A stretch of 34,515 nt of DNA from a virus (Duplodnaviria; Caudoviricetes): positions 1-34,515 of the IMG/VR virus record IMGVR_UViG_3300005512_000153; one strand, written 5' to 3'. The translations under genes were made by a program, and so were the position numbers. Position 1 is the stretch's first letter. The number at the start of each line of letters is the position of its first letter. Shown here one piece after another: positions 3,206 to 34,003 of the stretch. A model generated the notes under the pieces. That model saw only the letters and a list, made by a program, of their open reading frames with translations, was not told the origin of the DNA and ran no database searches.

Positions 3206-3248
3206 GTGTAGATAAGGATTACATCAATATCTATAGATTTTGAGATAT

Positions 3249-3332
3249 GGAGGACAGAGGGTAGCTCCCTTGGTTGAATGCCTTCAACATTCAACCTTAC
3301 TCCTATAACAACAAACCTTTGAAGGGGGTAAG
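3249..3332 (+). ncRNA. Structured 5' leader (three-way junction plus pseudoknot) upstream of the GIY-YIG endonuclease, copy 2
   Basis: P1 3249-3252/3300-3303, P2 AGGG/CCCT 3258-3270, P3 a perfect 9 bp stem 3272-3280/3288-3296. Loop CCTTCAA (3281-3287) is complementary to TTGAAGG (3319-3325). Confidence 0.65.
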
Positions 3333-3334
3333 TA

Positions 3335-7603: not shown

Positions 7604-7604
7604 A

Positions 7605-7638
7605 ATATTGTGGGGGTAGTAAAATACCCCCACAATAT
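7605..7638 (+). terminator. Perfect 14-bp hairpin between the sheath and tube genes (terminator or mRNA-stabilising/processing stem)
   Basis: ATATTGTGGGGGTA-gtaaaa-TACCCCCACAATAT. There is no U-tract on the + strand. Confidence 0.55.
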
Positions 7639-7651
7639 AAAGTGATAAGAA

Positions 7652-8203
7652 ATGAGCATTGATATAGATGAAATGATAAGTGAAACTGGTGGTGATAGAG
7701 CCAGGTCATATCTGTTTGAATGGATATTACCAGCTATACCAGAATTAAATATACCACTTATAGCAAATACAAAATATTATGTGAAAGCATCTAGTTTTCC
7801 AGAATCAGCTGTAGAAGAACTTACAACTTATTGGCAAGGGCAACAATATAAAGCTGGTGGATCAAGAAGATTTGGTGATTGGACAGTTACAGTCCAGAGT
7901 GATTCAGAGGGATATCTGAGATTTTTTTGTGATGTATGGATGCATGAAATACATACTGTTATACCTAATTTTACAAGATATGGAAAAGCATCTGGGCTTA
8001 CAAGTTTTGGGTATTTTAGAGATCAAGCATTTGTTCTGAATGATAATGAAGGAGACACTTCACTTGGGCTATATTTACATAACTCTTGGCCTAAAAATAT
8101 AGGAGCCATGAACCTTGATTATGATTCAAATGATATTGCTACATTTGATATTACATTTGCTTATGAATATCATGTAATAGTACCAACTTTTGGTTTGTTT
8201 TAA
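7652..8203 (+). CDS. Tail tube family protein (gp19-like), paralogue 1
   Basis: ARSYLF, VKASSFP, G.R.F.DWTVT, WPKNIG...LDYDS and FDITFAYEY motifs. Confidence 0.85.
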   Translation: MSIDIDEMISETGGDRARSYLFEWILPAIPELNIPLIANTKYYVKASSFPESAVEELTTYWQGQQYKAGGSRRFGDWTVTVQSDSEGYLRFFCDVWMHEIHTVIPNFTRYGKASGLTSFGYFRDQAFVLNDNEGDTSLGLYLHNSWPKNIGAMNLDYDSNDIATFDITFAYEYHVIVPTFGLF

Positions 8204-8214
8204 AAGGGATTATT

Positions 8215-8817
8215 ATGATTGGAATAGAAGAACTAAAGGGAAAGATAGAGGGTCTTATAAAACAGTATGCACCATTTATCACAAGTAGTTTTGATTCCTT
8301 TAGTGTTGATAAGTTTAGTACATATTTTGAAGGTGGGGCTAGAGCATATCTTTTCAAATGGAAGCCTGGAAGCCCAACAAGTGGTATAGTAAATATATCA
8401 GATGATTATATATATCTAGTAAAAGCATCATCCATACCACAATCGTCAGTTGAGGAAATAGTTACAGAATATCAACATCTCAATTTCAAAATGGGTGGTA
8501 AAAGGGTTTTTGATGATTGGACATTATCGTTTCTTGTAGATATAAAATCAAAAATAAGAGGTGATTTTGAGAAGTGGATGAATGGTATAACACAAGTGGG
8601 TAAGGATAATATTTTTATACAACATTATCTAAGTGAGTATACATCGACACAAGACTTTTATATGTTAGATGGTGATGGATTGGATATACTTCATGTAACA
8701 CTTTTTGATGCATGGCCTAAAACTATAGGGCCAGTAACAATGGATTATAGTTCCCAAGATTTTGCACAATTTGATGTAACATTTTCATATCTTTATCACG
8801 AAATAAAGAATGTTTAA
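8215..8817 (+). CDS. Tail tube family protein (gp19-like), paralogue 2
   Basis: GGARAYLF, GGKRVFDDWT, FEKWMN, DAWPK.IG and FDVTFSY motifs. Confidence 0.85.
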   Translation: MIGIEELKGKIEGLIKQYAPFITSSFDSFSVDKFSTYFEGGARAYLFKWKPGSPTSGIVNISDDYIYLVKASSIPQSSVEEIVTEYQHLNFKMGGKRVFDDWTLSFLVDIKSKIRGDFEKWMNGITQVGKDNIFIQHYLSEYTSTQDFYMLDGDGLDILHVTLFDAWPKTIGPVTMDYSSQDFAQFDVTFSYLYHEIKNV

Positions 8818-8835
8818 TAGATAGGAGGAGTAATA

Positions 8836-9393
8836 ATGGCAACAGAAGGATTTGATATTAATAAATTTAAAGCTAACTTTGATGGTGGGGCTAGAGCATA
8901 TTTGTTCAAATGGACCCCAACATTTCCTGGTGGTATTGAATTTAACAAGGGCAGTGCCGCTTCATACTTAGTAAAGTCATCAACATTTCCTGGTGATGAA
9001 GTAGAGGAAATAATTGTTAACTGGCAAGGTGTTGATTATAAGATGGCTGGAAAAAGAACCTTTCCAGATTGGACTCTATCATTCAATGTAGATAGAAAAT
9101 CCACAATTAGAAAGGATTTTGGTAATTGGATTGATGCAATTCATACAGTCAATGGTACAGAATCACATAAATATGGTACTCCTGGTAGTCCAGAAAGTAA
9201 TGATGATGATTTAGGTAGTTATTTCTCTCAACAGACATTATACATGTTGGACTATAATGGTGATCCTGTATCAACATTAACATTGCATGGTTCATGGCCC
9301 AAATCAATTGGTGAGATTAGTCTTGACTATTCATCAATGGAAGTAGCAACATTTGATGTTACGTTTACATATCAATACCATACTATAGAGTAA
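8836..9393 (+). CDS. gp19: Tail tube protein (gp19-like), paralogue 3; possibly the major tube subunit
   Basis: FDINKFKANFDGGARAYLF, KMAGKRTFPDWT, WPKSIGEI.LDY and FDVTFTYQY motifs. It has the strongest SD (AGGAGGAG) of the four. Confidence 0.85.
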   Translation: MATEGFDINKFKANFDGGARAYLFKWTPTFPGGIEFNKGSAASYLVKSSTFPGDEVEEIIVNWQGVDYKMAGKRTFPDWTLSFNVDRKSTIRKDFGNWIDAIHTVNGTESHKYGTPGSPESNDDDLGSYFSQQTLYMLDYNGDPVSTLTLHGSWPKSIGEISLDYSSMEVATFDVTFTYQYHTIE

Positions 9394-9401
9394 TAAGTAT
9401 T

Positions 9402-9893
9402 ATGGCTTTCGATTTAAACAGTTTTTCCGCTGTATTTGATGGGGGTGCTAGATCATACTTGTTTGAGTATACCCCATCATTCCCAAATACAACGTATAAT
9501 GCCACATATTTTGTGAAATCGACTTCTTATCCAGATTCTACAGTAGAAGAGATACAACTTGCTTGGAAAGGATTGAAGTATAAAATCGGTGGTACTAGAA
9601 CTTATAATGATTGGACTGTATCGTTTCATATGGATAAAAATTATAATATTAGAGAATATTATGATGATTGGATGAAAGATATAGCTGGCCAGGATAAATA
9701 TGGTAAACCAGAAGATTATGTAATGAGTCAGACACTATACGCATTAGGTTATGATGGTACAAAGAAATCAACCATAAAGCTATTTGATGCTTGGCCCAAA
9801 TCAGTTGGTGAAATAAGTTTTGATAACTCAGCGATAGAAGTAGCAACATTTGATGTTACGTTTGCATATCAATATTATACTATAACTAAATAA
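9402..9893 (+). CDS. Tail tube family protein (gp19-like), paralogue 4
   Basis: GGARSYLF, GGTRTYNDWT, DAWPKSVGEI and FDVTFAYQY motifs. Confidence 0.85.
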   Translation: MAFDLNSFSAVFDGGARSYLFEYTPSFPNTTYNATYFVKSTSYPDSTVEEIQLAWKGLKYKIGGTRTYNDWTVSFHMDKNYNIREYYDDWMKDIAGQDKYGKPEDYVMSQTLYALGYDGTKKSTIKLFDAWPKSVGEISFDNSAIEVATFDVTFAYQYYTITK

Positions 9894-20425: not shown

Positions 20426-23400
20426 ATGGGTAAGTTTTCAGACGCACCATATCATTTACTACAGAATTATTATAATGCTTTAATGAGCACTAAAAGTGGT
20501 AGCCAAATAAATCCTACTATAGTTGGTTCCTATTTAAGAGGGCATAGATCATCAATAATCAGTACTGGTGGGTATTGGGAAAGATTTTATGTGAAATTTA
20601 ATAAAATTACTGATGATAATGGTGTTGAACAGGATGCTGAATGGCCTGGTTTTGTTGAGTTCAAATTCAAACCAACAGACACAAATTATATAAATGGTGA
20701 TAAGTTTAGTTTCACTGGTGGTATATTATTAACATTAGAAGCTTCGGCAAACGGCGTAGTATTGAGTGTCACTGAATCTGGTGATGATATAACCTCATCA
20801 AGTAGTTGGAATTCTTATACTCAAGTGTATCATGTACCTAGTAAAACTGATATATATGGTACTATAGAACCTGGATCAGAGGTATATTTTAGAAGAAACA
20901 GTTATCTTCATAAATGGATAGAGAATGAAACCAATCTAACATTATATGAGGATATGACTAATGTTAAGCGTCCATTCTTATATTTTGGTAAAATCTATCC
21001 TAGCACTGGTGTTACAAATGGTTATCATATTATGTTTGATGGTATGAAGAATTTTGTAATGAATGCTCTACCTAGACATAACCGTACAGAAAGACTTACA
21101 GAGTTCATGAAGATATATTTCGATAAGATATACCATAAGATATATAATCTAAGCAAAAACATACCAACATTGTTAGATGCACAAGAATCTGATATAGATT
21201 ATCTAAAATATATGGCATTAAACTATAATATAGATCTTGATGATACATTTTCTTCTACTGATTTGATAACTAGAGAGGATGAAGCAAGAGATTGGGTTGA
21301 TAATCTTGTATACTTATTGAAACGTAAAGGCACATATACATCATTATATATTATATGGAAGACGTTATTACAAAATACACCAAACAGACTTAATATATAT
21401 GATAGATATCATTTATCACAACCAGTATCAGGTTGGTCTGTGCCCAATGTACCATTACCACATTTTACAAATGTTATGCATGAAGTAAATTATGGTATAG
21501 ACCCTGTGAGCTGTTCTGGTAAGTATTGGTATACGCAAGCCATAACAATAACGGATGCTGCTTTTCATACACAAGGCTTTGTTTCCACTACATGGGATGT
21601 ATATCATAAAATGTATACAAAGAATGTTATAGTTCAATGTTATGATGGGTTTTATAACAGGATATGGCCCGTATCCATAGAAGCTTTAACCTCTGGTCAT
21701 ATAAGATTGACATTTGCTACTAATGTTATTGGGTATGCGTATCTATTAAGAAGAGACTTTCTTAAAATTAATGATGAAGAACTTACGGCATGGATAATTA
21801 ACCATCTCAAAAATAACCAAAAAATCCTTTCTCAATATCAGAATACTGATTATGATATAATAATGCCAAAGAATGTTGAATTGACAAATCAAAATGTTAC
21901 TAATGCAGCATTTGAGACAGCTCAAAAAGGTTATGCGATGATTGAGAATACCGATGTTCATGTATTCAATCAAGTGGCATCAAAAAAGACATGGAATATA
22001 AATCATGCTTTAAGTAATCGTGATATCCTAATACAAGTATTTAACACCGATGATGAAGAAATAGAACCAAAGACAATTGTATTAACTGATAATGATAATT
22101 GTACATTAACATTTGAAGCATCTGCAAGTGGTTATGTTGTTATAAAAGAGTCTTCTGCTGGTACTGGTATAATACCAGATAATATGATACGATCACCACA
22201 TTATAGAGTGGAAACTGATCTATCATGTGAACCACTTGATAATGATGAAGGTAAAATCTTATCAGAATCCACAATAGATAGATTGATAACAAATTGGGAA
22301 TTAATGAGGCCTGTAACAAGATTCTCACATTATCATGAACTTATATCTCCAATATCAGACTTCTCTGGTAATGATATTTCTCTTTATGGTAGTGAATTTG
22401 ATAACTCATTTTTAATGACTAAATTTACTCCATCTGCTGGTGAAACATTACCAGCATCAGATCCCGATGTTATGGTTTATCATCAATTTTCTAATAGTGA
22501 TACATGGAATATTGCACATGATATGAACTCTACTGATTTTGTAATACAATGTTATAACAGTGAGAAGGAAGCAATATTCCCCAAATCAATAAGACCAATA
22601 GGAACTAATGTTATTAGTATTACATTTGAATATTCATCAAATGGACATGCAGTTATAACAGAAGCAGTATCTCCTAGTGGTGAGGTTTTTGACCAAGCAT
22701 CCCCAAGCTTACAGTGGTTGGTGACTCATGCATTAGGAACAAAAGAGATCATACATCAATACAATGATGATATATATCAACAATTTTTACCAGAGGAATC
22801 AACACTCACAGGTACAGGAGCATTAACTGGTGACCTTATTGAAAGTATGGCAGGTCATGTTATGATATCATCATTTGATTATTTTCATACACAAACACAA
22901 TCAACATCGGGCACTATATGGTATATTCCACATGGATTAGATAAAGAATGGGTTGTTGTCCAGGTATATAATAGTGATTGGGAACAAACACAACCAGAAA
23001 ACATAACAATTATAAGTAATAATGTCTGTAAGTTGGAGTTTGGTACTGCTATACATGGTTATGCTGTTGTTAGGGGTGTTAGTGATGTCATAACAACAGA
23101 TGATATATATGATTCAATTGTCAATGGTGGTACATGGATGATAGGACAAGGTACAAGTGGATCTGATTATGATCCATTAACAACTGGCAATGTAGAAAGT
23201 ATGCTTGTTAGTGGATCAACTTGGTTGGATACATATGAGGGTGATGATTATTTTTATATAACATTTGAAGCACATAATAGATATGATGCAGATTGGAATA
23301 TAACAGAACTCTTACTAAGGGATAACAATGGTATACCGAGATTCTATACTTATTGTTCACCAATACATAAACCAAAAGATGTTTGGTTTGATGCACATTT

Positions 23401-23428
23401 TAGATTGAAGAAGACTTATATAGGATAA
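20426..23428 (+). CDS. Large baseplate wedge protein (gp7-like) with six ~60-aa beta-repeat domains
   Basis: LLD....D..YL.Y.A and LLKRKGT..S (P2 gpI/gp7-like) motifs; follows gp6. Six W.I.H.L...V.Q.Y...I.P...L.F....G.A.I repeats. Confidence 0.65.
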   Translation: MGKFSDAPYHLLQNYYNALMSTKSGSQINPTIVGSYLRGHRSSIISTGGYWERFYVKFNKITDDNGVEQDAEWPGFVEFKFKPTDTNYINGDKFSFTGGILLTLEASANGVVLSVTESGDDITSSSSWNSYTQVYHVPSKTDIYGTIEPGSEVYFRRNSYLHKWIENETNLTLYEDMTNVKRPFLYFGKIYPSTGVTNGYHIMFDGMKNFVMNALPRHNRTERLTEFMKIYFDKIYHKIYNLSKNIPTLLDAQESDIDYLKYMALNYNIDLDDTFSSTDLITREDEARDWVDNLVYLLKRKGTYTSLYIIWKTLLQNTPNRLNIYDRYHLSQPVSGWSVPNVPLPHFTNVMHEVNYGIDPVSCSGKYWYTQAITITDAAFHTQGFVSTTWDVYHKMYTKNVIVQCYDGFYNRIWPVSIEALTSGHIRLTFATNVIGYAYLLRRDFLKINDEELTAWIINHLKNNQKILSQYQNTDYDIIMPKNVELTNQNVTNAAFETAQKGYAMIENTDVHVFNQVASKKTWNINHALSNRDILIQVFNTDDEEIEPKTIVLTDNDNCTLTFEASASGYVVIKESSAGTGIIPDNMIRSPHYRVETDLSCEPLDNDEGKILSESTIDRLITNWELMRPVTRFSHYHELISPISDFSGNDISLYGSEFDNSFLMTKFTPSAGETLPASDPDVMVYHQFSNSDTWNIAHDMNSTDFVIQCYNSEKEAIFPKSIRPIGTNVISITFEYSSNGHAVITEAVSPSGEVFDQASPSLQWLVTHALGTKEIIHQYNDDIYQQFLPEESTLTGTGALTGDLIESMAGHVMISSFDYFHTQTQSTSGTIWYIPHGLDKEWVVVQVYNSDWEQTQPENITIISNNVCKLEFGTAIHGYAVVRGVSDVITTDDIYDSIVNGGTWMIGQGTSGSDYDPLTTGNVESMLVSGSTWLDTYEGDDYFYITFEAHNRYDADWNITELLLRDNNGIPRFYTYCSPIHKPKDVWFDAHFRLKKTYIG

Positions 23429-23438
23429 GGAGAATGTA

Positions 23439-25100
23439 ATGGCCGCTAATGAAAATAGAGTTCATTTTTGGGATTTTTTGTTAAATGAAGAAGGACAACC
23501 TATAGCTAATGCTGAGATATGGGTATATCTTGCTGGGTCTACAACACCAGCAGATTTATATGATTCAGAGAACGGAAACTATATTTCCAGTGATATTCCT
23601 ACATTTCAAAGTTATGAGGGAGCAAATGAAGCTCTTTCTGGTAAGGAAATAATACGAACTGATAATACTGGATATTTTGAATTTTGGATAGGTAAAGAAT
23701 CTGAGCTTAATGGATATTTACCAACACAAAAATTCAAACTAAAATGGTATAAAGCTGGTATAGCAGAAGGTACTATTGATTTTATCAATATCATTAATTA
23801 TGCTACTGGTACTGATGGTGATGGGTTAGCATGGGAAGGTGATTGGACAGATGCAACACAATATGAAGAACGTGATCTTGTTTCGTTTACTTTAAGCCCA
23901 TCAGCTGTCTCTGTGTATATATGTACAGCGGCTCACTTATCTAGTTCTTTAACAGCACCTAGTAGTGGTGCTAACTGGGCTACTGTTTGGGATTTATATA
24001 GTCAAGGGCGTTCTGGTACATCTGGTACATCTGGTTATTCATTTGATTGGAAGGGAACATGGATAACAGCAACAGCATATGAGATATCAGATTCAGTAAG
24101 TAATACAACAAGTGCCAATATTTTAAGCTCATTTGTGTGTACAGCTGATCATACATCTGGTGCTACTGATGAACCAGGAGTAGGTGCAACGTGGAAAACT
24201 AAATGGGATTATATCAGTGCTGGTCGTGTAAATGGGGATTTTACTAGCTTAATAACCAATTCATTACAAATTACTGGACTTACAGCTTCTAAACCTGTAT
24301 TTACAGATGCTTCTAAGAATATTGTATCAACTGGTACATTACCCATAGACCAAGGTGGCACTGGATCAACAACTGCAAGCAATGCATTTGATGCACTTAA
24401 ACAGAATGCCACTGAATCTTATACGGGTGTATTAGAAACGGCTACAGATGCAGAAGCAGTTGCACATACTGCTACTGATAAAATAGTAGTACCATCAAAC
24501 CTTGATAATGTATTTGCTACTCCTCCATCATTAGGAAGTACAACACCATCAAGTGGTGCATTTACTACAATCACAACCACAAGTACTGCTACAATCGGTG
24601 CCGCAGGAACTTTGGAAGGTGGGCAATCAAGTCCCACTGGTACGACTGTTTTGGGTTATAATGGATATTTTTACGCTACAAAAGTTTTCAATAACGTATT
24701 TAATGATATTGCTGACTTTATAAATATAAGTGATGGTGAGAATATTGTATATGGTAAGTGTTATTACTATACACCAGAAGGTATTAAGATTTGTAACAAG
24801 AAGTGTCAGAAATCAGTAATAGGTATAACAACTGATACATTTGGATATGGTTTGGGTCAAGATGATTCCAAAGCACCTATTGCTATTGGTGGATGGGTAT
24901 TAGCATATACTGATAAAGAGTATGAACCAGGCACACCATTGACAAACGATGCAAATGGTAATCTTACTGAAATGAGTAAGCGTCAAAAGAGAAACTATCC
25001 AGAAAGATTAGTTGCTATATTTATGAGAAAGGAAGAAGAGAATAAGGTTTTCAATAATCATATTTCTGTAAATGGTAGAAATTGGGTTAGAGTTTATTAG
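23439..25100 (+). CDS. Tail fibre / receptor-binding protein
   Basis: N-terminal GQPIANA..WVYLAG...TD..GYF domain and two W.G.W.....Y...D.V CBM-like modules. These are followed by a Thr/Ser/Gly-rich shaft and a C-terminal ND.AD chaperone-like domain shared with 32951-34003. Confidence 0.75.
   Translation: MAANENRVHFWDFLLNEEGQPIANAEIWVYLAGSTTPADLYDSENGNYISSDIPTFQSYEGANEALSGKEIIRTDNTGYFEFWIGKESELNGYLPTQKFKLKWYKAGIAEGTIDFINIINYATGTDGDGLAWEGDWTDATQYEERDLVSFTLSPSAVSVYICTAAHLSSSLTAPSSGANWATVWDLYSQGRSGTSGTSGYSFDWKGTWITATAYEISDSVSNTTSANILSSFVCTADHTSGATDEPGVGATWKTKWDYISAGRVNGDFTSLITNSLQITGLTASKPVFTDASKNIVSTGTLPIDQGGTGSTTASNAFDALKQNATESYTGVLETATDAEAVAHTATDKIVVPSNLDNVFATPPSLGSTTPSSGAFTTITTTSTATIGAAGTLEGGQSSPTGTTVLGYNGYFYATKVFNNVFNDIADFINISDGENIVYGKCYYYTPEGIKICNKKCQKSVIGITTDTFGYGLGQDDSKAPIAIGGWVLAYTDKEYEPGTPLTNDANGNLTEMSKRQKRNYPERLVAIFMRKEEENKVFNNHISVNGRNWVRVY
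24891..24975 (+). repeat. Direct repeat copy 1 (85 nt, 3 mismatches versus 33800-33884)
   Basis: 24911-24970 is identical to 33820-33879 (tgataaagagtatgaaccaggcacaccattgacaaacgatgcaaatggtaatcttactga). Confidence 0.9.
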
Positions 25101-25109
25101 GAGATAGTT

Positions 25110-25883
25110 ATGGGATATGCTTGGAGTACAATATTACAGTATGAAGAGGTTACAGATGATTCATTTGATGAAGTTATAACAAATCTTAATTCTCTATATT
25201 TGGATTTAGAATCAACACAACCAATATGGACTAATAACCCTGAAGCTGGTAATATTATTGATGAGGATTATCTTAAAGAGGTTTTAACTAGAACTAATAC
25301 TGCATATGATCTAAATTACTGTAGGACTCATAATGCTACAGAAAATGCTACTCATCAAGGGGCTAAGTATCTTGGTGCTCTTGCATCTAATGATGATACA
25401 TTTAATGTTACTCATAACGTAACATACCAGAATGACTTACATTCTACATACCAGAATGACTTACATTCTACATACAAAAATGACCATAACACATTGGAAG
25501 ACAGTTCTCATTATACTGGATGGTTGAATGATCATAATACAGGAGAGGATTCTGCTTATAATGTAGGCTATCTAAATGATCATAATACAGGATATGATTC
25601 TGCTTATAATCTAGGTTATCTAAATGATCATAATACAGGAGATTCAACATTACATTCTACTTACCAAAGTGACTTGCATTCGGGATGGGATTCAACACAT
25701 TATGGTACTCATTATACAGTACATGATACAACAGAGCTATCTCCAAATGATGTTGGAGCAGCAGCATATGAATATGGTTCCGTATTAGATTCAGCTGATA
25801 CAGGATATGACGCTGGGGATCGGTCTGGGTATTGTTCTACTGAATATTCACCTGTTTATGGATCGTATTATAGTCCAACTTAA
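25110..25883 (+). CDS. His/Tyr/Asp/Asn-rich tetrad-repeat protein, type A1 (candidate rSAM substrate)
   Basis: GGAG SD. A doubled N-terminal motif ends in NYCRTHN (shared with 31762), followed by 8-aa (TYQNDLHS) and 16-aa (NDHNTG.DSAYN.GYL) repeats. Confidence 0.8.
   Translation: MGYAWSTILQYEEVTDDSFDEVITNLNSLYLDLESTQPIWTNNPEAGNIIDEDYLKEVLTRTNTAYDLNYCRTHNATENATHQGAKYLGALASNDDTFNVTHNVTYQNDLHSTYQNDLHSTYKNDHNTLEDSSHYTGWLNDHNTGEDSAYNVGYLNDHNTGYDSAYNLGYLNDHNTGDSTLHSTYQSDLHSGWDSTHYGTHYTVHDTTELSPNDVGAAAYEYGSVLDSADTGYDAGDRSGYCSTEYSPVYGSYYSPT
25422..25640 (+). repeat. In-frame 24-nt and 48-nt tandem repeats
   Basis: acataccagaatgacttacattct x2 from 25422. aatgatcataatacagga recurs at 25527, 25575 and 25623. 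Confidence 0.85.
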
Positions 25884-25897
25884 TAAGAGGTAATTTT

Positions 25898-26620
25898 ATG
25901 GCTTTAACATGGAGTGAAGATATATCAACAGGAGATAGAATAGATCTTTCTGATATTACAGAGTTTCGTACTAATATTGATCTAATAAAAGATAATCTTG
26001 ATAATATAACACATGATGCTACATTTCAATCTGATTATAATAGTATAAATGACCCAGGTGCCAATATATCACATAATAATATAGAATATACAACTTTATG
26101 TGCTTCTAACTATGTTGGACATGATACATCATATGATAATGGTCATGATGTAACATATTATTCTGGTCATGATAACGATTTGCATTCTGGTCATAACAAT
26201 GTTTTATATTCTGGTCATGATAACGATTTGCATTCAACATATCTATCTGGATGGTATAATGGTCATGATAACGATTTGCATTTAACATATAATGCAACCA
26301 ATTATCCGGGACATGATAACGATTTGCATTCAACATATCTATCTGGATGGTATAATGGTCATGATAACGATTTGCATTTAACATATAATGCAACCAATTA
26401 TCCGGGACATGATAACGATTTGCATTCAACACATAATGCAACCCAATATACCTCAAGAGATAGTAGTGTACATTCCTCTGAATGTTCATCATACTACTTT
26501 ACTAATCTAAACACACTCTGTCGATCTGATCATGTATTTCATGATTCTGGTGCATATGATGGACGAAATATTAGTATTTATTCAGGTCAATGTACTGGGC
26601 ATGAAAATCCATATGGATAA
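25898..26620 (+). CDS. His/Tyr/Asp/Asn-rich repeat protein, type B1 (candidate rSAM substrate)
   Basis: GAGG SD. N-terminus W..D...GD.I.L.DITE.R.NIDLI....ITHD is shared with 31071. Six GHDNDLH-led 16-aa units. Confidence 0.8.
   Translation: MALTWSEDISTGDRIDLSDITEFRTNIDLIKDNLDNITHDATFQSDYNSINDPGANISHNNIEYTTLCASNYVGHDTSYDNGHDVTYYSGHDNDLHSGHNNVLYSGHDNDLHSTYLSGWYNGHDNDLHLTYNATNYPGHDNDLHSTYLSGWYNGHDNDLHLTYNATNYPGHDNDLHSTHNATQYTSRDSSVHSSECSSYYFTNLNTLCRSDHVFHDSGAYDGRNISIYSGQCTGHENPYG
26165..26452 (+). repeat. Six 48-nt in-frame tandem units including a 96-nt duplication
   Basis: catgataacgatttgcatt recurs every 48 nt. GHDNDLHSTYLSGWYN-GHDNDLHLTYNATNYP occurs twice. Confidence 0.9.
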
Positions 26621-26630
26621 AATATAATAT

Positions 26631-26660
26631 GTTTACAATTATATAAACATAAGTTACAAT
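26631..26660 (+). promoter_or_regulatory. Sigma70/T4-early-type promoter driving the radical SAM cassette
   Basis: GTTTACA-17 nt-TACAAT in the intergenic gap. The same architecture occurs at 34179-34208. Confidence 0.65.
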
Positions 26661-26693
26661 AAGTTAAACTAAATTTTGGAGGAAATAAATTGT

Positions 26694-27065
26694 ATGGAAA
26701 ATTTTAAACAAGATTTTGAAAATATTTGTAAAGAAGATATGAAGGACGCGTGTTTGATAGGATTATCCGCTCTTGTACTAAAAAATATATCAGAAATTGA
26801 ATCTAAAAAATTGGGCATCATAAAGGAAGTATTTTGCACTCTTGACCATGAATTACCAGAAATTAAAAAAATTACTGGAATGTTTAATATTGTTGAAGAG
26901 TATGATAAGAGATTGATTGATATTCTTGTTACTATTGAAAGGGATATCTCTATAGCCTTATTTGATAAGAATGAAGGTGATAAATGTTGTAATAACAAAC
27001 AGCAAGATGATAAACTCTGTAATATTGATAGAGATGCCAAAATCAAGAAATGGTGGGAGGTATAA
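26694..27065 (+). CDS. Hypothetical Cys-containing helical protein (rSAM cassette accessory)
   Basis: ATG at 26694 after GGAGG (the ORF track starts at TTG 26676). First gene after the promoter. Confidence 0.65.
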   Translation: MENFKQDFENICKEDMKDACLIGLSALVLKNISEIESKKLGIIKEVFCTLDHELPEIKKITGMFNIVEEYDKRLIDILVTIERDISIALFDKNEGDKCCNNKQQDDKLCNIDRDAKIKKWWEV

Positions 27066-27066
27066 A

Positions 27067-27246
27067 ATGAAAATATATCAAATAATAGGTATGAGAGAAC
27101 AATATGGTGAAGAGTTTCATAAACTTAAAGAAGAAGGAAACAGAGAAGCCATTGAGATTAGTAATGGGTATAAGAATCCATTGATAGTAGCCAATATTTT
27201 AAGATGTAGGGTAAATTGCCTATTGGATAAGATGAGAGGTAAATGA
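27067..27246 (+). CDS. Small hypothetical protein (59 aa, rSAM cassette accessory)
   Basis: GGAGG SD, MKIYQIIGMREQYGEEF...KMRGK*. It abuts both neighbours (the ORF track starts at 26962). Confidence 0.6.
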   Translation: MKIYQIIGMREQYGEEFHKLKEEGNREAIEISNGYKNPLIVANILRCRVNCLLDKMRGK

Positions 27247-27247
27247 T

Positions 27248-28471
27248 ATGTCAAAAGAAGAAAAAATGGGTGATTTTGAAAAGAAGATACTTGAAAATAA
27301 GGTATTGAATAGGTGTAAGTCTATAGAGATTGTTTCTTCAGAAAAATGCCAAAATGCTTGTAAGTATTGTTATAGAGTAAAGAAACATAGTAAATCACCA
27401 GTATATTCTTTAAAAGGACACCATGTAAAGACTTTAGTTGATGCTCTGCTGAATCAAATAGAACAGGACACAAGTTTTACCAAAGTAAGAGACTTTGAAC
27501 TATTTGGTGGTGATAGTCTTATAGATTATGCTGATGCTCTTGATATATTAAGGACTATTAATAGAGAGTATAAACCCCAAAGAATCACTATTCCTACCAA
27601 TGCTCGTATGTTACAAGAACTTACCATAAATGATATTAGAAGACTGGTGGATATGGAAACGCCAGTCGGTTTTAGTTTATCAGTTGATGGGATAAGTGAT
27701 GGTAATAGAAGATTATCCAAAATTGGTAAAATGTTAGCTTATAATGAAGAAGTTAATTACCCAAAACTATTAAAAATTGCAAAAGAGTTTGGATGTGGTT
27801 TCCATCCAATGTTATCATTTACAGATTTCACGAATTGGTTACCCACCATTAAACATTTTTTTGAAAATATGGGTGTAATTCCATATCTACTGGAAGTTAG
27901 ACATTCATTATCTCATGGACAATCTTTAGGTGCAGTAAAAGAACTTGTAAAGGTGAGGAAATATCTTGAAAGCAAGAACCTTCCTAAAGAATCCTTGAAA
28001 AATGCTAATACAACTAGTGGAAGTATAACACCTAGAGGATTGGGATGTTCTGCTTTGACAACATTATGTATTATGCCTAATGGTGATATACCATTTTGTC
28101 ATAGATTGATTGATGAACCTTGGTTAATAGGTAATGTTTTTCATGGTATTGATATATCTAAAGCTGTACAATATACAAGTACAATGGATCATAGGAACTT
28201 TCCTGATTGTATAATCTGTCCTATAAGAAGGTTTTGTAATGGTTTATGTGTTGGTGCTTGTTATGAATATTGGGGTGATCCTTGGATTCCTATTACTACT
28301 ATATGTGATTATATGAGATTGAAATATTATATTTTTGGTGAAGTTTTTGAGGATTGGAAAAACATGTTGTATAATGCAGGTGGTAGAATAAAGAGAGATA
28401 TTTTATTACATCATGTATCAGAAACCTTTGGGGGTGATAATATTAATAAGATTTTAGAAGAGGTATCTTAA
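27248..28471 (+). CDS. Radical SAM/SPASM-domain enzyme 1 (peptide/protein maturase-like)
   Basis: CQNACKYC (CxxxCxxC), FGGD, PTN and LSVDG. SPASM cysteines: GCSA...I.PNGD..FCH...IGN...CIICPIRRFCNGLC...C. Confidence 0.92.
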   Translation: MSKEEKMGDFEKKILENKVLNRCKSIEIVSSEKCQNACKYCYRVKKHSKSPVYSLKGHHVKTLVDALLNQIEQDTSFTKVRDFELFGGDSLIDYADALDILRTINREYKPQRITIPTNARMLQELTINDIRRLVDMETPVGFSLSVDGISDGNRRLSKIGKMLAYNEEVNYPKLLKIAKEFGCGFHPMLSFTDFTNWLPTIKHFFENMGVIPYLLEVRHSLSHGQSLGAVKELVKVRKYLESKNLPKESLKNANTTSGSITPRGLGCSALTTLCIMPNGDIPFCHRLIDEPWLIGNVFHGIDISKAVQYTSTMDHRNFPDCIICPIRRFCNGLCVGACYEYWGDPWIPITTICDYMRLKYYIFGEVFEDWKNMLYNAGGRIKRDILLHHVSETFGGDNINKILEEVS

Positions 28472-28472
28472 A

Positions 28473-29492
28473 ATGAATATACTCTTAATAAATCAAAATA
28501 AAGGTGCTGGGGTTGAATTTGAGGGTAATCTATTTCTTGAGATACTTAAAAAGATTGATGGTATTACAAGTGTAGAGACATCAAGAACACAAGATACTAA
28601 CTATCTGAAAAAGAATTTGGATTTTAGTAAATATGACCTTATATTACTCAATGATATAAGTAATATAGAGGATAGATATGTTGATCTACTGCCAGATGAT
28701 AAACCAATCATAAACATAAATTTTGGTGGTGGTGATGCTCATGGTAAATATCCCGTAGATTTGGTACTTGATATTAATCATCCATACACTATGTATAGAT
28801 CTGTTGAGGTTAGGAATGTTTTTCCATTATCATTCATATCAGGTAATATATGGAAAAACATAAAACCTTGGAATGAAAGATCAGATGACCTATTATATGT
28901 TAGCAGATTAGCAAAAACAAAAATAGAGAAAGTTTTCTTAGAACTGTTGAGAAAGAATAAAAAAACTGTAGACTTCTATGGTCCAATTATGGACAATGAT
29001 TATTATGAGGAGTATAAAGATGTTATTAATTATAAAGGATTTATAGATCATAAAGAACTATTGAATGTCTACAACAGTTACAAGAAGATATATTTATTTT
29101 CTACAACCGAATGTCTATCTATGACATTAAGGGAAGCTATATTATGTGGAACTGTACCTATTATACTAGATATTAACGGATATTCAAAGGTTGTATCTGA
29201 TTATGTTATTAAGTTTAGGATAAATGATGAAAATATATTTGATGTTGATAATGATATAAATAAAAAGAAACAAAGAATTAAGAATGATATTATTTATCTA
29301 AATAACTTATTTTCATTCGATAAACTAATACTGGACTTCATTACAGCATTAAGAAGTCTATTATTAAAGGATTTTAGGTTTAATAAAAATGCTAATGTGG
29401 TGTGTAGAGTAATAAATGACTTGGATGATCAAAAAATAACAGGCCATTTATATAAATCTGATACTATTGAATGGGATAAAGTAAACCTGTAA
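28473..29492 (+). CDS. Glycosyltransferase, GT-B fold (GT4-like)
   Basis: LLYVSRL...K, DFYG, YKGFIDH.EL...Y and the Ex7E motif ECLSMTLREAILCG. Confidence 0.8.
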   Translation: MNILLINQNKGAGVEFEGNLFLEILKKIDGITSVETSRTQDTNYLKKNLDFSKYDLILLNDISNIEDRYVDLLPDDKPIININFGGGDAHGKYPVDLVLDINHPYTMYRSVEVRNVFPLSFISGNIWKNIKPWNERSDDLLYVSRLAKTKIEKVFLELLRKNKKTVDFYGPIMDNDYYEEYKDVINYKGFIDHKELLNVYNSYKKIYLFSTTECLSMTLREAILCGTVPIILDINGYSKVVSDYVIKFRINDENIFDVDNDINKKKQRIKNDIIYLNNLFSFDKLILDFITALRSLLLKDFRFNKNANVVCRVINDLDDQKITGHLYKSDTIEWDKVNL

Positions 29493-29505
29493 GGAGGGTT
29501 GTGTA

Positions 29506-31074
29506 ATGTTAAAATATGGATTAGAAGATTTGGGATATTTCAATAAAGGGCCTGGAAGTGTTAAAATGATAGAAATGGATATAGGCCCATGGCATATTAT
29601 AGATGTCCCTATAGATATCCCAGAAGAGAAGGTAAAGAAACAGATCTTATCGTTTATCAATGAAGTTATTGCAATAGAAATACCGACATCACTACAATGT
29701 AACCTAAGATGTAAATATTGTTATATTAGTGATCCAAGAATGAAGAATAAGATTGTTGATCCACAATCAGTTACGGATATTCTTATGAAAGTTAAAGATA
29801 TGTTTCCAAAAATGAAGCCTGATAAGAATAGAAAAGATAAGGTATGTTTTTCACCTTGGGGTGCTGAACCAATGATGAATGTTGATACTCTTAATGCCAT
29901 GTATGAGTTTGGTCATGAATATTATGGTAAAGATGGTTATTCTATTCATACATCTACAAATGGTACTATATGGTCTAAAAAGATAGAACAGTTGCTTATC
30001 AATCTTTTTAAGGATAACTCTTTTCAAGATCTTCAAATTTCATTAGATGGACCACCAGAAGTTCAAGATAAATATAGACCATATACAGATGGTCATGGTT
30101 CATTTAAAGATATTGAAAAATTCACTTTAAATCTTTTCAAGTTTTTTGATTCTGTTGGTATTAAGGATAAGAAACATCACTTCTGTTCAACTATTCATAT
30201 GGATGAGAACTTTGAACAATCATGGTTAGGTGCTGCTGAGTTTTTCTCGACGCCTGGTAAGTGGTGGACATCATTACCCAATTTACCAATGAGAATAGCA
30301 GATCATAATATGAAAAATGAGGATGAGATTAGAAGGTTTATTGATGTACAAAAGAAGGTTATGGAATTATCCAAGAAAAGATATAATGAAGGTATCTTTA
30401 TGGTTGATTTTTATACCAGTAAACTATTTGGTAATATTCAATGTAAATCAAGAAATGCTTTTCCATTCTGTTCTGCAATGAATACTCAAATTGGTGTTGA
30501 TGTTGATGGTAGCATGTATCCATGTCATGGGGCAATAACCTCACCAAGACAAAAACCTTTTTTATGGTTTGGTAACTTATTTGAAGGTATTTTATCATAC
30601 CAAAAGGTGATTAAAAATATTTCTTATCAGTTTGGTAGCATTTGGAGTAGAGCAAAATGCACAAGTTGCCCATTGCATCATTATACAACGGGTAATGTCT
30701 GTTGGGATTGTGCTCCACATAATCTTGAACTTACAGGTGAACCATCTACAGACGGGATTATGAAATGTATAGCATTTTCTGAAAGTTTACCATATTGGAC
30801 TGAGATTGCAAAAATGGTATATAATAATCCTATATTAAAAGAAATCCCTGATAAATATAAATATAGTAAAGAAGAGTATTCTAAACTAAAAAAACTTAAT
30901 ATTATGCCAGAAAACATGCATTATGATAGAGACTATGATGGGATTTTAGATAGAGCAGTTAGAAAAGTATGTTGTCTTGATAATAAAGAGGATTATGGTT
31001 ATACACAATATGCTGATGCTTGGTGGAAATTTGATGATTTTTTTAATCTTGTAGAAAAGGAGAAATGTAAATGA
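29506..31074 (+). CDS. Radical SAM/SPASM-domain enzyme 2 (peptide/protein maturase-like)
   Basis: CNLRCKYC, WGAEP, TSTNGT and ISLDGP...D.YR....G.GSF. SPASM: CSA.......DGSMYPCH...FGNL...CTSC...C..C...C. Confidence 0.93.
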   Translation: MLKYGLEDLGYFNKGPGSVKMIEMDIGPWHIIDVPIDIPEEKVKKQILSFINEVIAIEIPTSLQCNLRCKYCYISDPRMKNKIVDPQSVTDILMKVKDMFPKMKPDKNRKDKVCFSPWGAEPMMNVDTLNAMYEFGHEYYGKDGYSIHTSTNGTIWSKKIEQLLINLFKDNSFQDLQISLDGPPEVQDKYRPYTDGHGSFKDIEKFTLNLFKFFDSVGIKDKKHHFCSTIHMDENFEQSWLGAAEFFSTPGKWWTSLPNLPMRIADHNMKNEDEIRRFIDVQKKVMELSKKRYNEGIFMVDFYTSKLFGNIQCKSRNAFPFCSAMNTQIGVDVDGSMYPCHGAITSPRQKPFLWFGNLFEGILSYQKVIKNISYQFGSIWSRAKCTSCPLHHYTTGNVCWDCAPHNLELTGEPSTDGIMKCIAFSESLPYWTEIAKMVYNNPILKEIPDKYKYSKEEYSKLKKLNIMPENMHYDRDYDGILDRAVRKVCCLDNKEDYGYTQYADAWWKFDDFFNLVEKEKCK

Positions 31075-31745
31075 GTGATTTGGATAATAGAATTAATTTC
31101 ATATGGGGTGGTGATGTATTAGATGGTGATAAAATAGAACTTACTGATATTACTGAAATACGATCTAATATAGATCTGATAGTTGCCGCTGATATTACTC
31201 ATGATTCTACATTCTATGAAACCCATTATACAGATTTAAAGACAGATTTGAACAATCCATATGATTCTACAAAGGAGTCTGGCAAACAAACTGGATATGA
31301 AAGTAATAGATATGCTATACATTTCACAGGTCATGATTCTACAAAATATGTAACACATGAAAATGGTGATGAGACTGACTTTAGAACTGGGCATTTTAGT
31401 ATACATGATAGTGCACGATATGACAGTGAAGATACTAATGATGATACTGTCGATGAGGCTGCTGATTATACTACACATCAATCAGTAAACAACATAACAC
31501 ATTTTGATAATGCTAATACTGCTGATGATAGTTCTAATGAAGGATATTATAAAGCAGTTAAAGATAGTTCTTATTGTTATGCTGTACAATCTGGTAGGTA
31601 TGATGATCATAATACATCGGATAGGAGTAATCAAAATGTTGGTAGAAATTTGCTTGATTATAAAGGTGCATTAATTTCACATCAGCAGTATGATCAAGTA
31701 AGCTATCTTGATGCCCACAATCCAGGTAATAATATTATAGCATAA
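31071..31745 (+). CDS. His-periodic tetrad-repeat protein, type B2 (candidate rSAM substrate)
   Basis: AAGGAG SD; overlaps the rSAM2 stop. The N-terminus matches 25898, and all 12 His fall in one 4-residue register over ~180 aa. Confidence 0.8.
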   Translation: MSDLDNRINFIWGGDVLDGDKIELTDITEIRSNIDLIVAADITHDSTFYETHYTDLKTDLNNPYDSTKESGKQTGYESNRYAIHFTGHDSTKYVTHENGDETDFRTGHFSIHDSARYDSEDTNDDTVDEAADYTTHQSVNNITHFDNANTADDSSNEGYYKAVKDSSYCYAVQSGRYDDHNTSDRSNQNVGRNLLDYKGALISHQQYDQVSYLDAHNPGNNIIA

Positions 31746-31761
31746 TAGGAGAATTTTTGAT

Positions 31762-32532
31762 ATGGCGTATAGTTGGATACCAATAATAGCAGGTCAGAAA
31801 ATTAGTGTTCCAGAATATACAGAACTACAAAATAATCTTGATGATTTGTTAACGAATTTTTTAGAGCTTACGGATTATGATTGGGGATATACTGCAGTAC
31901 AAAATGAACCAATTCAGGGTGAGTTAGTAAGAGAAATAAGAACTGCTGTTGATTATGCAGATGATATGAATTATTGTAGAACACATAATTCATCAGAAAA
32001 GACTACTTATAATAATGCTTTAAAGACAGATCATGATGCTGGTCTATGTCCATTAGAAAAATCTTCTTTAAATACTGGACATTTGAATATACATTATATA
32101 ACAGACTATGGAATACATGACACATTGCATTATGAAACAGATGATACAGACCATTTGAATGCTGAGTATTCTAGTGTATTGGGTAGTCACAACTCAATAA
32201 ACATACCCGGTCATAATAGCAGTCACCATACATCAAAATATTATTCCAAGGAAGTAACACACAATGCCTCAGAACGTAGTAGTGTAAATAATGAACGTAA
32301 TCAATCCGCTAATACAAGTGATTATAGTACACATTTAACAGCTAATGATGATGCTGATTATGCTGGTAATAAATCTACTCAATATACTGGACATGAAACC
32401 TCTGAGTATAGTGGATTGCGTACTGGTCATCTGACTGCTGATTATACAAATGAATACACTTATGATAAGAGTTCATATGATGGTACAGAAAAAGGCGGAG
32501 AAAATACCTCTGTAAATGCGGTAAACCAATAA
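31762..32532 (+). CDS. His-periodic tetrad-repeat protein, type A2 (candidate rSAM substrate)
   Basis: AGGAG SD. The N-terminus matches 25110 (NYCRTHN), and 14 of 15 His fall in one 4-residue register. Confidence 0.8.
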   Translation: MAYSWIPIIAGQKISVPEYTELQNNLDDLLTNFLELTDYDWGYTAVQNEPIQGELVREIRTAVDYADDMNYCRTHNSSEKTTYNNALKTDHDAGLCPLEKSSLNTGHLNIHYITDYGIHDTLHYETDDTDHLNAEYSSVLGSHNSINIPGHNSSHHTSKYYSKEVTHNASERSSVNNERNQSANTSDYSTHLTANDDADYAGNKSTQYTGHETSEYSGLRTGHLTADYTNEYTYDKSSYDGTEKGGENTSVNAVNQ

Positions 32533-32546
32533 AGGGAGAATAAAAT

Positions 32547-32933
32547 TTGTCAAATTATTACATAACTAATAAAGAATTATCAGTAGAACTTGTGAATTAT
32601 AGAGAAGAGGGTGTTATATCAGAAGAGTTAGGTGAAATGATTATATCTATTGCTACAAACTATTCCAATAAGGGTAGTTTCTCTTCATACTCATGGAAAC
32701 GAGATATGATATCAGAAGCAGTATTTACATGTGTCAAATATATACACAACATTGATCCAGAGAAAAATCCATTTTCTTATATAACAACAGTCTGTCATAA
32801 TGCATTTGTAAACTATATAAGGAAACAGAAGAAGCATAGTAAGATTAAAGATTCTTGTTATAATAATATTGATAAATTGACAGATAAAGAAAATTATATG
32901 GAAAAGTCTATAAATTACGAGGACTTAAAGTAG
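32547..32933 (+). CDS. gp55: Late transcription sigma factor (T4 gp55-like)
   Basis: Y..NKEL, LGEMI..IA, F..YSW..DMISEA...C.KY..N.DPEK.NPFSY.T....NAF...I.K.KK. TTG start after GGGAG. Confidence 0.9.
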   Translation: MSNYYITNKELSVELVNYREEGVISEELGEMIISIATNYSNKGSFSSYSWKRDMISEAVFTCVKYIHNIDPEKNPFSYITTVCHNAFVNYIRKQKKHSKIKDSCYNNIDKLTDKENYMEKSINYEDLK

Positions 32934-32950: not shown

Positions 32951-34003
32951 ATGGAGTATCATGGTATAACTATGTTAGGTGACCTTAACACTGATAATGT
33001 TAAGGCTAAAGATACAACAGGACTGTTATTATACAACAGTGTACCAACAGCTATAATGACTCTCGGAGATGCGGCAAGTGGTGCTACATATATTAGAGCT
33101 TATACTGGTACTGCAATCAATGAGTTTAGTACTGATACAAGTATGGCCGGTGATAGTAATGACGCATTACCAACTGAAAGAGCTGTAAAACGATATGTTG
33201 ATAATAACTTTCAACCATTGGATAGTGATCTAACAACATTAGCTGGTCTTACACCTACTGATGGTAACTTTATAGTTGGTAACGGCTCAGCTTGGATTGT
33301 TGAAAGTGGATTAACTGCTATTGCCAGTTTAGGAATGGCAACATATCTTACTGCACCAGATCCAATAGGTTCTGGTACACCTTCAACTGGTAAATTTACA
33401 ACACTTGAAACTACAGGAGCAACTACACTTGGTTCAACTGCCACTGTAGGAACAAGTGTAACAGTCGCAACTAATACAGTATTAACAGGTACAACATTGA
33501 AACTTGGTAGTTCTGGAACATTACAATATAACCAATCAAGTCCTACTGGTACTGCTATATTGGGTTATAATGGTTATCTTTATGCTACTAAGGTCTATAA
33601 TACAGTATATAATGATATAGCTGATTGGCAAGACCTAAATGATGAACTTATGTATGGTAAGTGTTATGTAGATACAAAGAGAGGTGCAAGAATTGCTACT
33701 GTAAGGTGTCAGAAAGGATTAATTGGTATTGCTTCTGATACATATGGTCAGTCATGTGGTATAGATACTGATAAAATTCAAGTACCTGTATCAATAGCAG
33801 GATGGGTATTAGCATATGTTGATAAAGAGTATGAACCAGGCACACCATTGACAAACGATGCAAATGGTAATCTTACTGAGATGAGAATGGATGAGAAGAC
33901 CATGTATCCAGAACGACTTGTGGCTACATACAAGAAACCAGAAGATAAAGAATATTGGAATAATATAGTAGTAAATGGTAGACATTGGGTAAAAGTGAGA
34001 TAA
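32951..34003 (+). CDS. Second tail fibre-like protein, paralogous C-terminus to 23439-25100
   Basis: Thr/Gly-rich shaft (QPLDSDLT.LAGL) and shared QSSPTGT..LGYNGY.YATKV.N.V.NDIAD...GWVLAY.DKEYEPGTPLTND...V.V. Confidence 0.75.
   Translation: MEYHGITMLGDLNTDNVKAKDTTGLLLYNSVPTAIMTLGDAASGATYIRAYTGTAINEFSTDTSMAGDSNDALPTERAVKRYVDNNFQPLDSDLTTLAGLTPTDGNFIVGNGSAWIVESGLTAIASLGMATYLTAPDPIGSGTPSTGKFTTLETTGATTLGSTATVGTSVTVATNTVLTGTTLKLGSSGTLQYNQSSPTGTAILGYNGYLYATKVYNTVYNDIADWQDLNDELMYGKCYVDTKRGARIATVRCQKGLIGIASDTYGQSCGIDTDKIQVPVSIAGWVLAYVDKEYEPGTPLTNDANGNLTEMRMDEKTMYPERLVATYKKPEDKEYWNNIVVNGRHWVKVR
33800..33884 (+). repeat. Direct repeat copy 2 (matches 24891-24975)
   Basis: 60-nt identical core at 33820-33879. 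Confidence 0.9.

Follow-up and report, generated by a model that had tools for sequence, protein, structure and literature searches.

The window analysed here, the whole 34,515-nucleotide record IMGVR_UViG_3300005512_000153 (Duplodnaviria; Caudoviricetes), is the entire 34.5 kb contig of a T4-like myovirus. Its plus strand carries, at positions 25110 to 32532, genes for four paralogous proteins built on a four-residue repeat, which we call the ladder proteins R1 to R4, together with two radical S-adenosylmethionine (SAM) enzymes, a glycosyltransferase (GT) and two small open reading frames (ORFs). We conclude that this ladder system is a cysteine-poor variant of a known, uncharacterised kind, the CXXX-repeat system, and that it works like that system and like the archaeal CrpC/CrpA pair, being a member of neither. 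Its recurrence in other phages supports a dedicated, conserved gene set. The two enzymes very probably act on the ladders, and the genomic setting makes it probable that the modified product is located on the virion. What that product might be is a more tentative matter: among the readings weighed below, we prefer serial chemistry at the C-beta of one repeat position which, with ring closure, would yield a stapled two-chain virion fibre.

An earlier note on this DNA, made from its letters and ORFs, had listed two CxxxCxxC + SPASM enzymes, a GT, two small ORFs and four repeat proteins, and all of these ORFs were found in place on the plus strand.

The ladder proteins repeat every four residues

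R1 (25110-25883, 257 aa), R2 (25898-26620, 240 aa), R3 (31071-31745, 224 aa) and R4 (31762-32532, 256 aa), all on the plus strand, each consist of a helical head and, behind it, a ladder of 45-50 tetrads in register. The N-terminal motif that the earlier note saw in all four is real, with the correction that the head module, W-x(8)-G-xx-I...E-(L/I)-R-xx-(I/D)-D, occurs twice at the N-terminus of R1 and R4 (A-type heads) and once in R2 and R3 (B-type heads).

In all of R1 to R4, and for each of three residue classes, a period of four residues, with eight as its harmonic, was significant (p≤0.001; the Fourier power beat all 1000 shuffles), and by the same measure a period of three reached significance nowhere. 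The repeats had been described as tracts of aromatic-x-(S/T/N/D) units. Such triads do exceed shuffled sequences, modestly (p 0.003-0.043), but the real period is four, and HDS, HNT and YDS therefore represent slots d-a-b of a tetrad a-b-c-d. This tetrad is in register throughout R2, R3 and R4 (50, 45 and 46 tetrads, respectively); R1 has about 46 tetrads, counted from Cys71, with one single-residue register slip. Tandem duplications of 24, 48 and 96 bp, recent and up to 100% identical, lie within R1 and R2 (25422-25642 and 26116-26443) and extend both ladders by multiples of two tetrads.

Slot a is a residue with an unbranched beta-CH2 in 185 of the 187 window tetrads, mostly Asp, Asn, Tyr or His, and all nine ladder cysteines (9/9) fall in it. 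Slots b and c are small (Ser, Thr, Gly or Ala) and slot d is large. For the family counts, the phase was set only by the first ladder cysteine (Cys72 in R4), which is invariant in 124/124 A-type chains and has mostly Asn, Tyr or Asp at +4, and the next six tetrads of the 124 aligned chains were scored (744 positions). The unbranched beta-CH2 rule is kept at 98% of these positions, with Asn at 29%, Asp 26%, Tyr 14%, Leu 5%, Lys, His and Gln 4% each, and Arg and Cys 3% each, and slot a is nearly free of Ser/Thr (1.5%), Gly (0.3%) and Ala (0.1%). In these family tetrads, Ser, Thr, Gly and Ala predominate in slots b and c, and slot d holds Tyr, His, Val, Asp and Asn and is aromatic in 35%.

The gene set recurs in ten phage loci

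Both enzyme types, together with a two-module and a one-module ladder, are present in 10/10 informative, independent phage loci, the window included. These loci come from unrelated uncultured phages and lie beside tail or baseplate genes. The earlier proposal of a dedicated system is thus supported. The ladder pair of L162 is short (149 and 113 aa). A profile of the second enzyme, rSAM2, retrieved L080, L005, L016, L018 and L022/L025; L162 was reached through a motif of the first enzyme, rSAM1, L163 through the C-terminal domain of tail-fibre-type protein B, and L173 and L174 through the ladder-head motif. For three loci (L163, L173, L174) the search thus made no use of the enzymes, only of the fibre domain or the ladder motif. 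The ladder-head motif gave six viral matches: two were the L022 phage again, with its enzymes, two were L173 and L174, and two, L170 and L172, are uninformative, ending about 1 kb or less from the match. The second match of the fibre-domain search, L164, is a different system.

The rSAM2-profile scans, in which matches were listed from 24 of 64 viral parts and 3 of 64 metagenome parts, gave mostly distant enzymes. For 23 of 45 rSAM2 homologues, and for 20 of the 30 on contigs of at least 5 kb, the longest contig has exactly the length of that of an rSAM1 homologue, an indirect sign of linkage. Some ladder, mostly of the cysteine type, was found in 58 of 79 viral loci chosen for rSAM2 likeness (30 of 47 after dereplication) and in 7 of 80 metagenome loci. 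A direct scan of viral contigs with rSAM2 alone gave no match. Two motif scans gave 0 matches and one a chance match (L161); a further one gave four genome matches (L165-L168), none with a matching ORF. An alignment of ladder heads contained no stretch of sufficient conservation for scanning loci.

L022, L025, L169, L171 and L172 represent a T4-like phage whose genes are open only when TGA is read as Trp (table 4), and a TGA aligns with the conserved Trp of the ladder head. A baseplate-type protein of this phage is 26% identical to the product of window 20426-23428.

Two SPASM enzymes of separate clades

rSAM1 (27248-28471, plus strand, 407 aa) and rSAM2 (29506-31074, plus strand, 522 aa) both pass the Pfam model Radical_SAM PF04055 (31.9 and 35.0 bits; cut-off 29.5) and belong to tight families of 57 and 45 proteins, of which 55/57 and 42/45 retain CxxxCxxC. 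For the C-terminal SPASM region, with its cysteines for two auxiliary clusters, rSAM1 exceeds the TIGR04085 cut-off (33.6 bits against 27) and its CX2CX5CX3C motif is found in 57/57 members; rSAM2 scores slightly below that of PF13186 (19.5 against 21.5 bits), and a variant, CX2CX8-12CX2C, is present in 44/45. The description of both as radical SAM enzymes with SPASM cysteines is thereby confirmed.

Both enzymes score below the cut-off of every named maturase family in NCBIfam. Their best matches there are peptide or protein maturases (PapB, DynA, QhpD-type, SCIFF), with PapB best for rSAM2 (3e-30). A profile of the 45 rSAM2 sequences matched five sequences in the PDB, led by 5WGG, anSME and ChlB. 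We take 5WGG to be CteB. Its sister entry, 5WHY, is named CteB in PMC13692751. The placement therefore lies near peptide and protein maturases (PapB, DynA, CteB, anSME, ChlB), in agreement with the role assumed by the earlier note. A function as nucleotide or cofactor modifiers was rejected, no such family being among the best NCBIfam or PDB matches.

Membership in the His-Xaa-Ser, triceptide, PapB or TIGR04115 families was likewise rejected, as scores lie far below the cut-offs. For rSAM1 and rSAM2, respectively, these are 36.2 and 62.2 bits for TIGR04115 (cut-off 350), 33.7 and 40.5 for HxsB TIGR03978 (370), 22.9 and 42.7 for YhhB NF041707 (445), 59.8 and 105.5 for NF047865 (340) and 43 and 59 for TIGR03974 (425), the two models used for ranthipeptide maturases (PapB/CteB), and 16 and 33 for TIGR04463, the CrpC model (525); HxsC TIGR03977 is not among the best 25 NCBIfam families of either. 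No Pfam match indicated a RiPP (ribosomally synthesised and post-translationally modified peptide) recognition element (RRE) or PqqD domain in the enzymes, whose cluster motifs follow after only about 30 and 60 residues. A tree was built of 92 dereplicated sequences, without L173 and L174, whose enzymes were assigned by tblastn. There, the proteins of rSAM1 type and those of rSAM2 type separate into two clades of corresponding branching order (support 0.995 and 0.69), and both stand apart from the TIGR04115 clade.

A cysteine-poor relative of the CXXX-repeat system

The earlier note had named the His-Xaa-Ser and triceptide systems as analogues. The window shares with them a His/Tyr-rich repeat, aromatic-x-Ser/Asn triads and, with Hxs, two radical SAM genes. 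In that form the analogy is not supported, given the period of four rather than three, the few H-x-S units (0, 2, 5 and 4 in R1 to R4), HxsB and YhhB scores far below cut-off and a family slot d that is aromatic in only 35%. A separate triad-type system is seen in L164, where a 202-aa protein ending in short His-x-Ser triads (6715-7323, minus strand) lies among four radical SAM genes and adjoins an S74-bearing protein.

A closer relative, which the note had not named, is the CXXX-repeat system (TIGR04115 maturase, TIGR04116 helper and, in Pfam 38, the PF27846 target), whose phage form occurs, for example, in Salmonella phage SPN3US. Our literature search found no characterisation of it. Shared features are the period of four, Ser/Thr/Gly in slots b and c, a homologous helical head, an adjacent SPASM enzyme and, in phages, a place among tail genes. 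The cysteine-type phage enzymes of L001 and L031 pass TIGR04115 (499 and 444 bits against 350), and the b and c slots of cysteine-type ladders have the same make-up as those of the window family. In contrast to the CXXX system, slot a of the window is Asp, Asn, Tyr, His, Leu or Lys rather than Cys (9 Cys in 187 tetrads) and slot d holds large instead of small residues; the window has a pair of enzymes from separate clades, the head is split over two chains, and there is an optional GT. No TIGR04116-type helper was recognised, as neither accessory ORF had any NCBIfam match at E≤0.1.

In SPN3US (NC_027402; L160:7088-7895), two CXXX-ladder ORFs (7088-7480, 130 aa; 7491-7895, 134 aa) lie ahead of the phage's two radical SAM genes. 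The annotation lacks the first of them and reads the second in a different frame; virion proteomics would therefore have overlooked both. As SPN3US is cultured and has the cysteine form, it is a test case in which the virion question can be asked at once for that form. Cysteine-rich repeats of another spacing (CxC...RT units) were seen at L003:18-5809 and L053:17002-18867, the latter within a protein of 621 aa whose gene neighbours are of tail type and include several radical SAM enzymes.

CrpC of Methanococcus voltae (SPASM; TIGR04463) introduces repeated -2 Da links into the 28.8 kDa repeat protein CrpA, whose folded N-terminal domain aids recognition and which has a paralogue with the same N-terminus (PMC13692751). 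The window thus shares with CrpC/CrpA a SPASM enzyme, a repeat protein with a folded N-terminal domain and paralogues sharing that N-terminus; CrpC/CrpA differs in its thioether on Cys, archaeal cell, enzyme RRE and 17-residue repeat (PMC13692751). In repeated CXXXD motifs, PapB joins residue i to residue i+4 (PMC12373016). In the PapB/CteB/QhpD group, PapB is the best NCBIfam and 5WGG the best PDB match of rSAM2, but below cut-off, and unlike PapB and CteB substrates the window ladders are nearly Cys-free and not enriched in C-x3-D/E. Our literature search, which left subscription papers largely outside, found no phage radical SAM enzyme acting on repeat or tail proteins. In the text of the Goslar preprint (10.64898/2026.04.21.720040), the words 'cysteine' and 'thioether' do not occur.

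Head modules and their predicted pairing

AlphaFold predicts the R4 head as helical (pLDDT, predicted local distance difference test, 93-97). A profile of eight two-module heads found 1840 representatives at E≤0.001. Among the best 150 of these, 113 have a ladder by a set rule and 37 do not; the 37 include short ladders missed by the rule and bacterial secreted proteins ending in three modules. In these bacterial proteins, which carry FN3, LamG, M23 or RHS domains, the head module forms a terminal triple repeat (HHalign 98.8%). P0187, P0242, P0270, P0276, P0287, P0304 and others are of this kind, and the module has no library family. In one head homologue, a weak Hint match lies behind the head.

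The three-module domain folds confidently (pLDDT 88). It had no clear fold match in the PDB (Foldseek best E 1.6; best VIA-align Z 7.5 with a root-mean-square deviation of 2.8 over 104 aligned residues, in the range of common helical arrangements) or in BFVD (best E 0.035), and no PDB sequence match. Heads of phage CXXX ladders match the A-type head (HHalign 93.8%, E 1.8e-7) and reach only 26.8% with the bacterial triple repeat; a single-module hidden Markov model gave at most 7 bits on cysteine-type heads. In the ESM Atlas, R4 gave a lead only, to PF27846 clusters (0.81, 153 features). Given the homology of its heads to CXXX-target heads, the ladder system is a cysteine-poor sister to that of TIGR04115 and has its own enzymes.

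Every cysteine-poor locus encodes one two-module and one one-module chain (assigned by eye in L080), which suggests a heterodimer that rebuilds three modules. Complex prediction for R4(1-104) with R3(6-77) gave a score of 0.40 against 0.02 for the best control, with at least 79% contact agreement between runs and a partner pLDDT of at least 51. In the calibration, which used 157 solved complexes and 215 mismatches, 116 of the former and 2 of the latter reached the mark; of these, only 18 of the 157 and both mismatches had scores of 0.60 or below. These models lend weak support to pairing of the R4 and R3 heads.

Genomic setting and link to the virion

The block lies between a gene for tail-fibre-type protein A (23439-25100, plus strand, 553 aa; PHROGs tail collar/fibre, E 2e-5 to 4e-5) and one for a T4 gp55-like late sigma factor outside the system (32547-32933, plus strand; phrog_234, E 1e-29), which is followed by tail-fibre-type protein B (32951-34003, plus strand, 350 aa; phrog_9851, E 1e-8 over a short stretch). 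The C-terminal domains of the two fibre-type proteins are 50% identical. The earlier statement that two tail-fibre genes bracket the block thus holds in that both are present, but the sigma gene separates R4 from the downstream one. GC content of the block resembles that of the remaining contig. A T4 late promoter sequence, TATAAATA, stands upstream of each ladder pair (24719 and 30856), but its 16 sites in the window are not above chance (9/100 shuffles).

In other loci the ladders neighbour DUF2793 proteins (L016, L163), a Peptidase_G2-like protein (L162) or a gp5-like gene (L080). Six of the best 150 head matches end in SDx(R/K)LK, presumably the start of the S74 fibre chaperone, and in L016 the remainder of a Peptidase_S74 chaperone is encoded behind the second ladder by an ORF of its own (E 1e-7). 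On R1 to R4 themselves, Pfam and PHROGs showed no known fibre or chaperone domain. In L015, a cysteine ladder lies behind a discoidin-like domain. The neighbourhood of the block thus points to a virion appendage, as far as gene context can indicate. In L031, a CXXX-ladder (3142-3978) and a YadA/Peptidase_G2 fibre protein (7636-9528) have nearly identical first 14 residues, a hint that the two may dock at one tail site or be swapped by recombination.

Glycosyltransferase, accessory ORFs and other genes

The GT-B glycosyltransferase (28473-29492, plus strand, 339 aa) passes PF00534 (41 bits; cut-off 26.4) and contains ECLSMTLRE, which we take to be the E-x7-E motif of a GT4-type enzyme. Its relatives are an orthologue in L174 (37% identical) and a protein in L080 (26%), where further GT-like ORFs and a sugar epimerase follow; in the fetched stretches of the other seven of the 10 loci no GT was found, and an alignment search with the GT retrieved only the L174 contig again. 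The GT was therefore rejected as a core part of the system (3/10 loci): the earlier note had correctly recognised the enzyme, but within the proposed dedicated system it is optional. Phage GTs are known from virion glycosylation in mycobacteriophages Che8 and Rita, where the reported target is the major capsid protein (cited in PMC11256854). The window likewise has a phage GT that may decorate a structural protein; in those phages there is no radical SAM enzyme. ORFs resembling nucleotidyltransferases, with an HxGH motif, repeatedly adjoin the enzyme pair in loci in which no GT was found: L016 (11689-12606; weak PF01467 match), L163 (14928-15839), L005 (7032-7919 and 9064-9963) and L053 (12548-13354). 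They are possibly alternative tailoring enzymes.

Accessory ORF 1 (26676-27065, plus strand; 123-129 aa, probable start ATG 26694) had no family match above cut-off in Pfam, NCBIfam or PHROGs and nothing in the ESM Atlas. It is possibly a helper, comparable to the ORFs of 140-190 aa found after the enzymes in related loci. Accessory ORF 2 (27067-27246, plus strand, 59 aa) weakly matches the C-terminal half of L162:8778-9251 (E 0.003). That the two are fused in L162 was considered and dropped, as ORF 1 showed no significant match there (E 0.65) and that of ORF 2 is weak.

Elsewhere, the window encodes neck, tail sheath, tube-like and baseplate-type genes, labelled by eye from the translations, a tape-measure-like protein with a tail lysozyme domain (library match) and an SbcD-like nuclease. 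Four tandem tail-tube-like paralogues (183, 200, 185 and 163 aa; also labelled by eye) follow the sheath gene at 7652-9893, and free-standing homing endonuclease genes (HNH-NUMOD3 at 421-1548, GIY-YIG-NUMOD3 at 3335-4063) lie in the neck region.

What the enzymes may do to the ladders

If the ladders are modified, a crosslink is somewhat favoured as the type of modification. For the stapled fibre that we tentatively prefer, the two-module chains (R1/R4) and one-module chains (R2/R3) are predicted to pair by their heads and so rebuild the three-module domain that bacterial proteins hold in one chain. The head would serve as a folded leader, with possibly one enzyme per chain type and help from the small ORFs. 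A 5'-deoxyadenosyl radical would then abstract a hydrogen from the slot-a C-beta, and the ring would be closed by a side chain one turn off, either from slot a of the preceding tetrad or from the adjacent large slot d, each tetrad thereby changing by -2 Da; in cysteine-type members of the family, the ring would be closed through sulfur. The product would be a stiff, protease-resistant appendage for host contact, a thin fibre on the virion tail, to whose Ser/Thr-rich b/c face the GT likely adds sugar in some phages only. The C-beta of Asp, Asn and Tyr is an established radical SAM crosslink acceptor (PMC13692751, PMC11002830), and CrpC/CrpA offers a precedent in which an entire protein, bearing a folded N-terminal domain, is crosslinked serially (PMC13692751).

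Several observations weigh against such a fibre. We found no universal nucleophile in any slot: Cys makes up 3% of slot a, Ser or Thr at b or c is present in only 1764 of 2521 tetrads, and Leu, Phe and Met, about 7% of slot a, are unable to donate. Asp or Glu at +4 follows a slot-a Cys in 24/197 cases (12%), below the 28% for other residues, and the PapB motif is thus not favoured. The AlphaFold model of the R4 ladder (pLDDT about 50, 124 sequences) is uninformative on its fold, and Asx, aromatic and Cys stacks are typical of unmodified beta-solenoids as well. R1 to R4 lack the S74 start motif. The bacterial triple-module proteins have no ladder and, as far as tested, no enzyme link. The enzyme-blind sample is small (three new loci, one re-found, two ending near the match), and searches of cultured phages gave neither a match to the ladder head nor a close one to the enzymes.

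Four other explanations were weighed, each of which we regard as improbable. In the first, triceptide-type cyclophanes in a virion protein would join the slot-d His, Tyr or Trp ring to the slot-b C-beta in about a third to half of its tetrads. Of the 187 window tetrads, 85 have an aromatic slot d, ChlB is among the five PDB matches of the rSAM2 profile, and His-Ala, Tyr-Asp and Phe-Ser links are known (PMC11002830). Across the 2521 in-register tetrads, slot b is Ser, Ala, Asn, Asp or Arg slightly more often after an aromatic d (477/814, 59%) than otherwise (802/1583, 51%; odds ratio 1.38), with p-values inflated because the sequences are related. However, on the first six tetrads the fraction of Ser, Thr, Asn or Asp in slot b is 0.53 after an aromatic d and 0.53 otherwise, Gly or Pro still follows an aromatic d in 11%, and the low family share of aromatic d and the YhhB scores (23 and 43 bits against 445) speak against this chemistry. 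It also leaves unexplained why slot a is the most constrained, and does not account for the cysteine homologues, which have Ser, Gly or Thr in slot d.

The second, to which we give little credence, has every slot-a residue changed without a crosslink, for example epimerised at C-alpha to the D-form or desaturated between alpha and beta carbons, which would fix an exact four-residue backbone repeat in a virion fibre. Because neither reaction needs a nucleophile, the mixed slot-a residues, Leu included, would fit, and radical SAM epimerases do place D-residues serially in a pattern (PMC8326336). Yet the epimerase targets named in PMC8326336 are Val and Ile, which are excluded from slot a, and proteusin epimerases have the radical SAM cluster only (PMC8326336), whereas rSAM1 and rSAM2 retain SPASM cysteines. 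No epimerase model is among the best 25 NCBIfam families of either enzyme, and the exclusion of Ala and Ser from slot a would be unexplained.

Ladders that are enzyme-modified but act off the virion, as intracellular or released RiPP-like products in metal binding or counter-defence, would suit the His/Asp/Tyr-rich composition, and CrpA has been suggested to bind metals (PMC13692751). The steady position by tail-fibre or baseplate genes in unrelated phages, the S74 start motif on some ladders and the L015 ladder behind its discoidin-like domain make this unlikely, and by Pfam, NCBIfam and PHROGs the block lacks genes for export or processing, with neither a transporter nor a RiPP protease.

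Lastly, the ladder might fold unmodified, as a beta-solenoid or metal-filled needle, with the enzymes linking at most the first Cys or serving another substrate. Stacks of side chains every n residues are a common unmodified motif, and the invariant Cys72 with its +4 Asn, Tyr or Asp would offer a single site. We doubt this reading: many B-type chains, R2 and R3 among them, lack that Cys although both enzymes are retained, no confident ladder fold came from AlphaFold with 124 sequences, and the cysteine homologues adjoin a TIGR04115 maturase.

Implications

In its boldest form, the stapled fibre would be a heterodimeric tail appendage made by enzymes as a ladder polymer, optionally glycosylated, with every fourth residue crosslinked over tracts of 180-200 residues independently of cysteine. 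We hold this full version to be rather doubtful, and the same degree of doubt attaches to its corollary that crosslinking would use Asp, Asn, Tyr, His, Lys or Gln interchangeably. As slot a accepts many residues, the enzymes would need unusual tolerance, and with up to about 50 modifications per chain this would be a sequence-tolerant stapling chemistry undescribed for SPASM enzymes, relevant both to mechanism and to tools for peptide stapling. The rule that emerges here (an unbranched C-beta in slot a, one A-type and one B-type chain, and two enzyme clades) makes the question testable. If true, the ladder system would represent a class of virion structure made post-translationally, and would take RiPP-type radical chemistry beyond small natural products, to a viral structural part.

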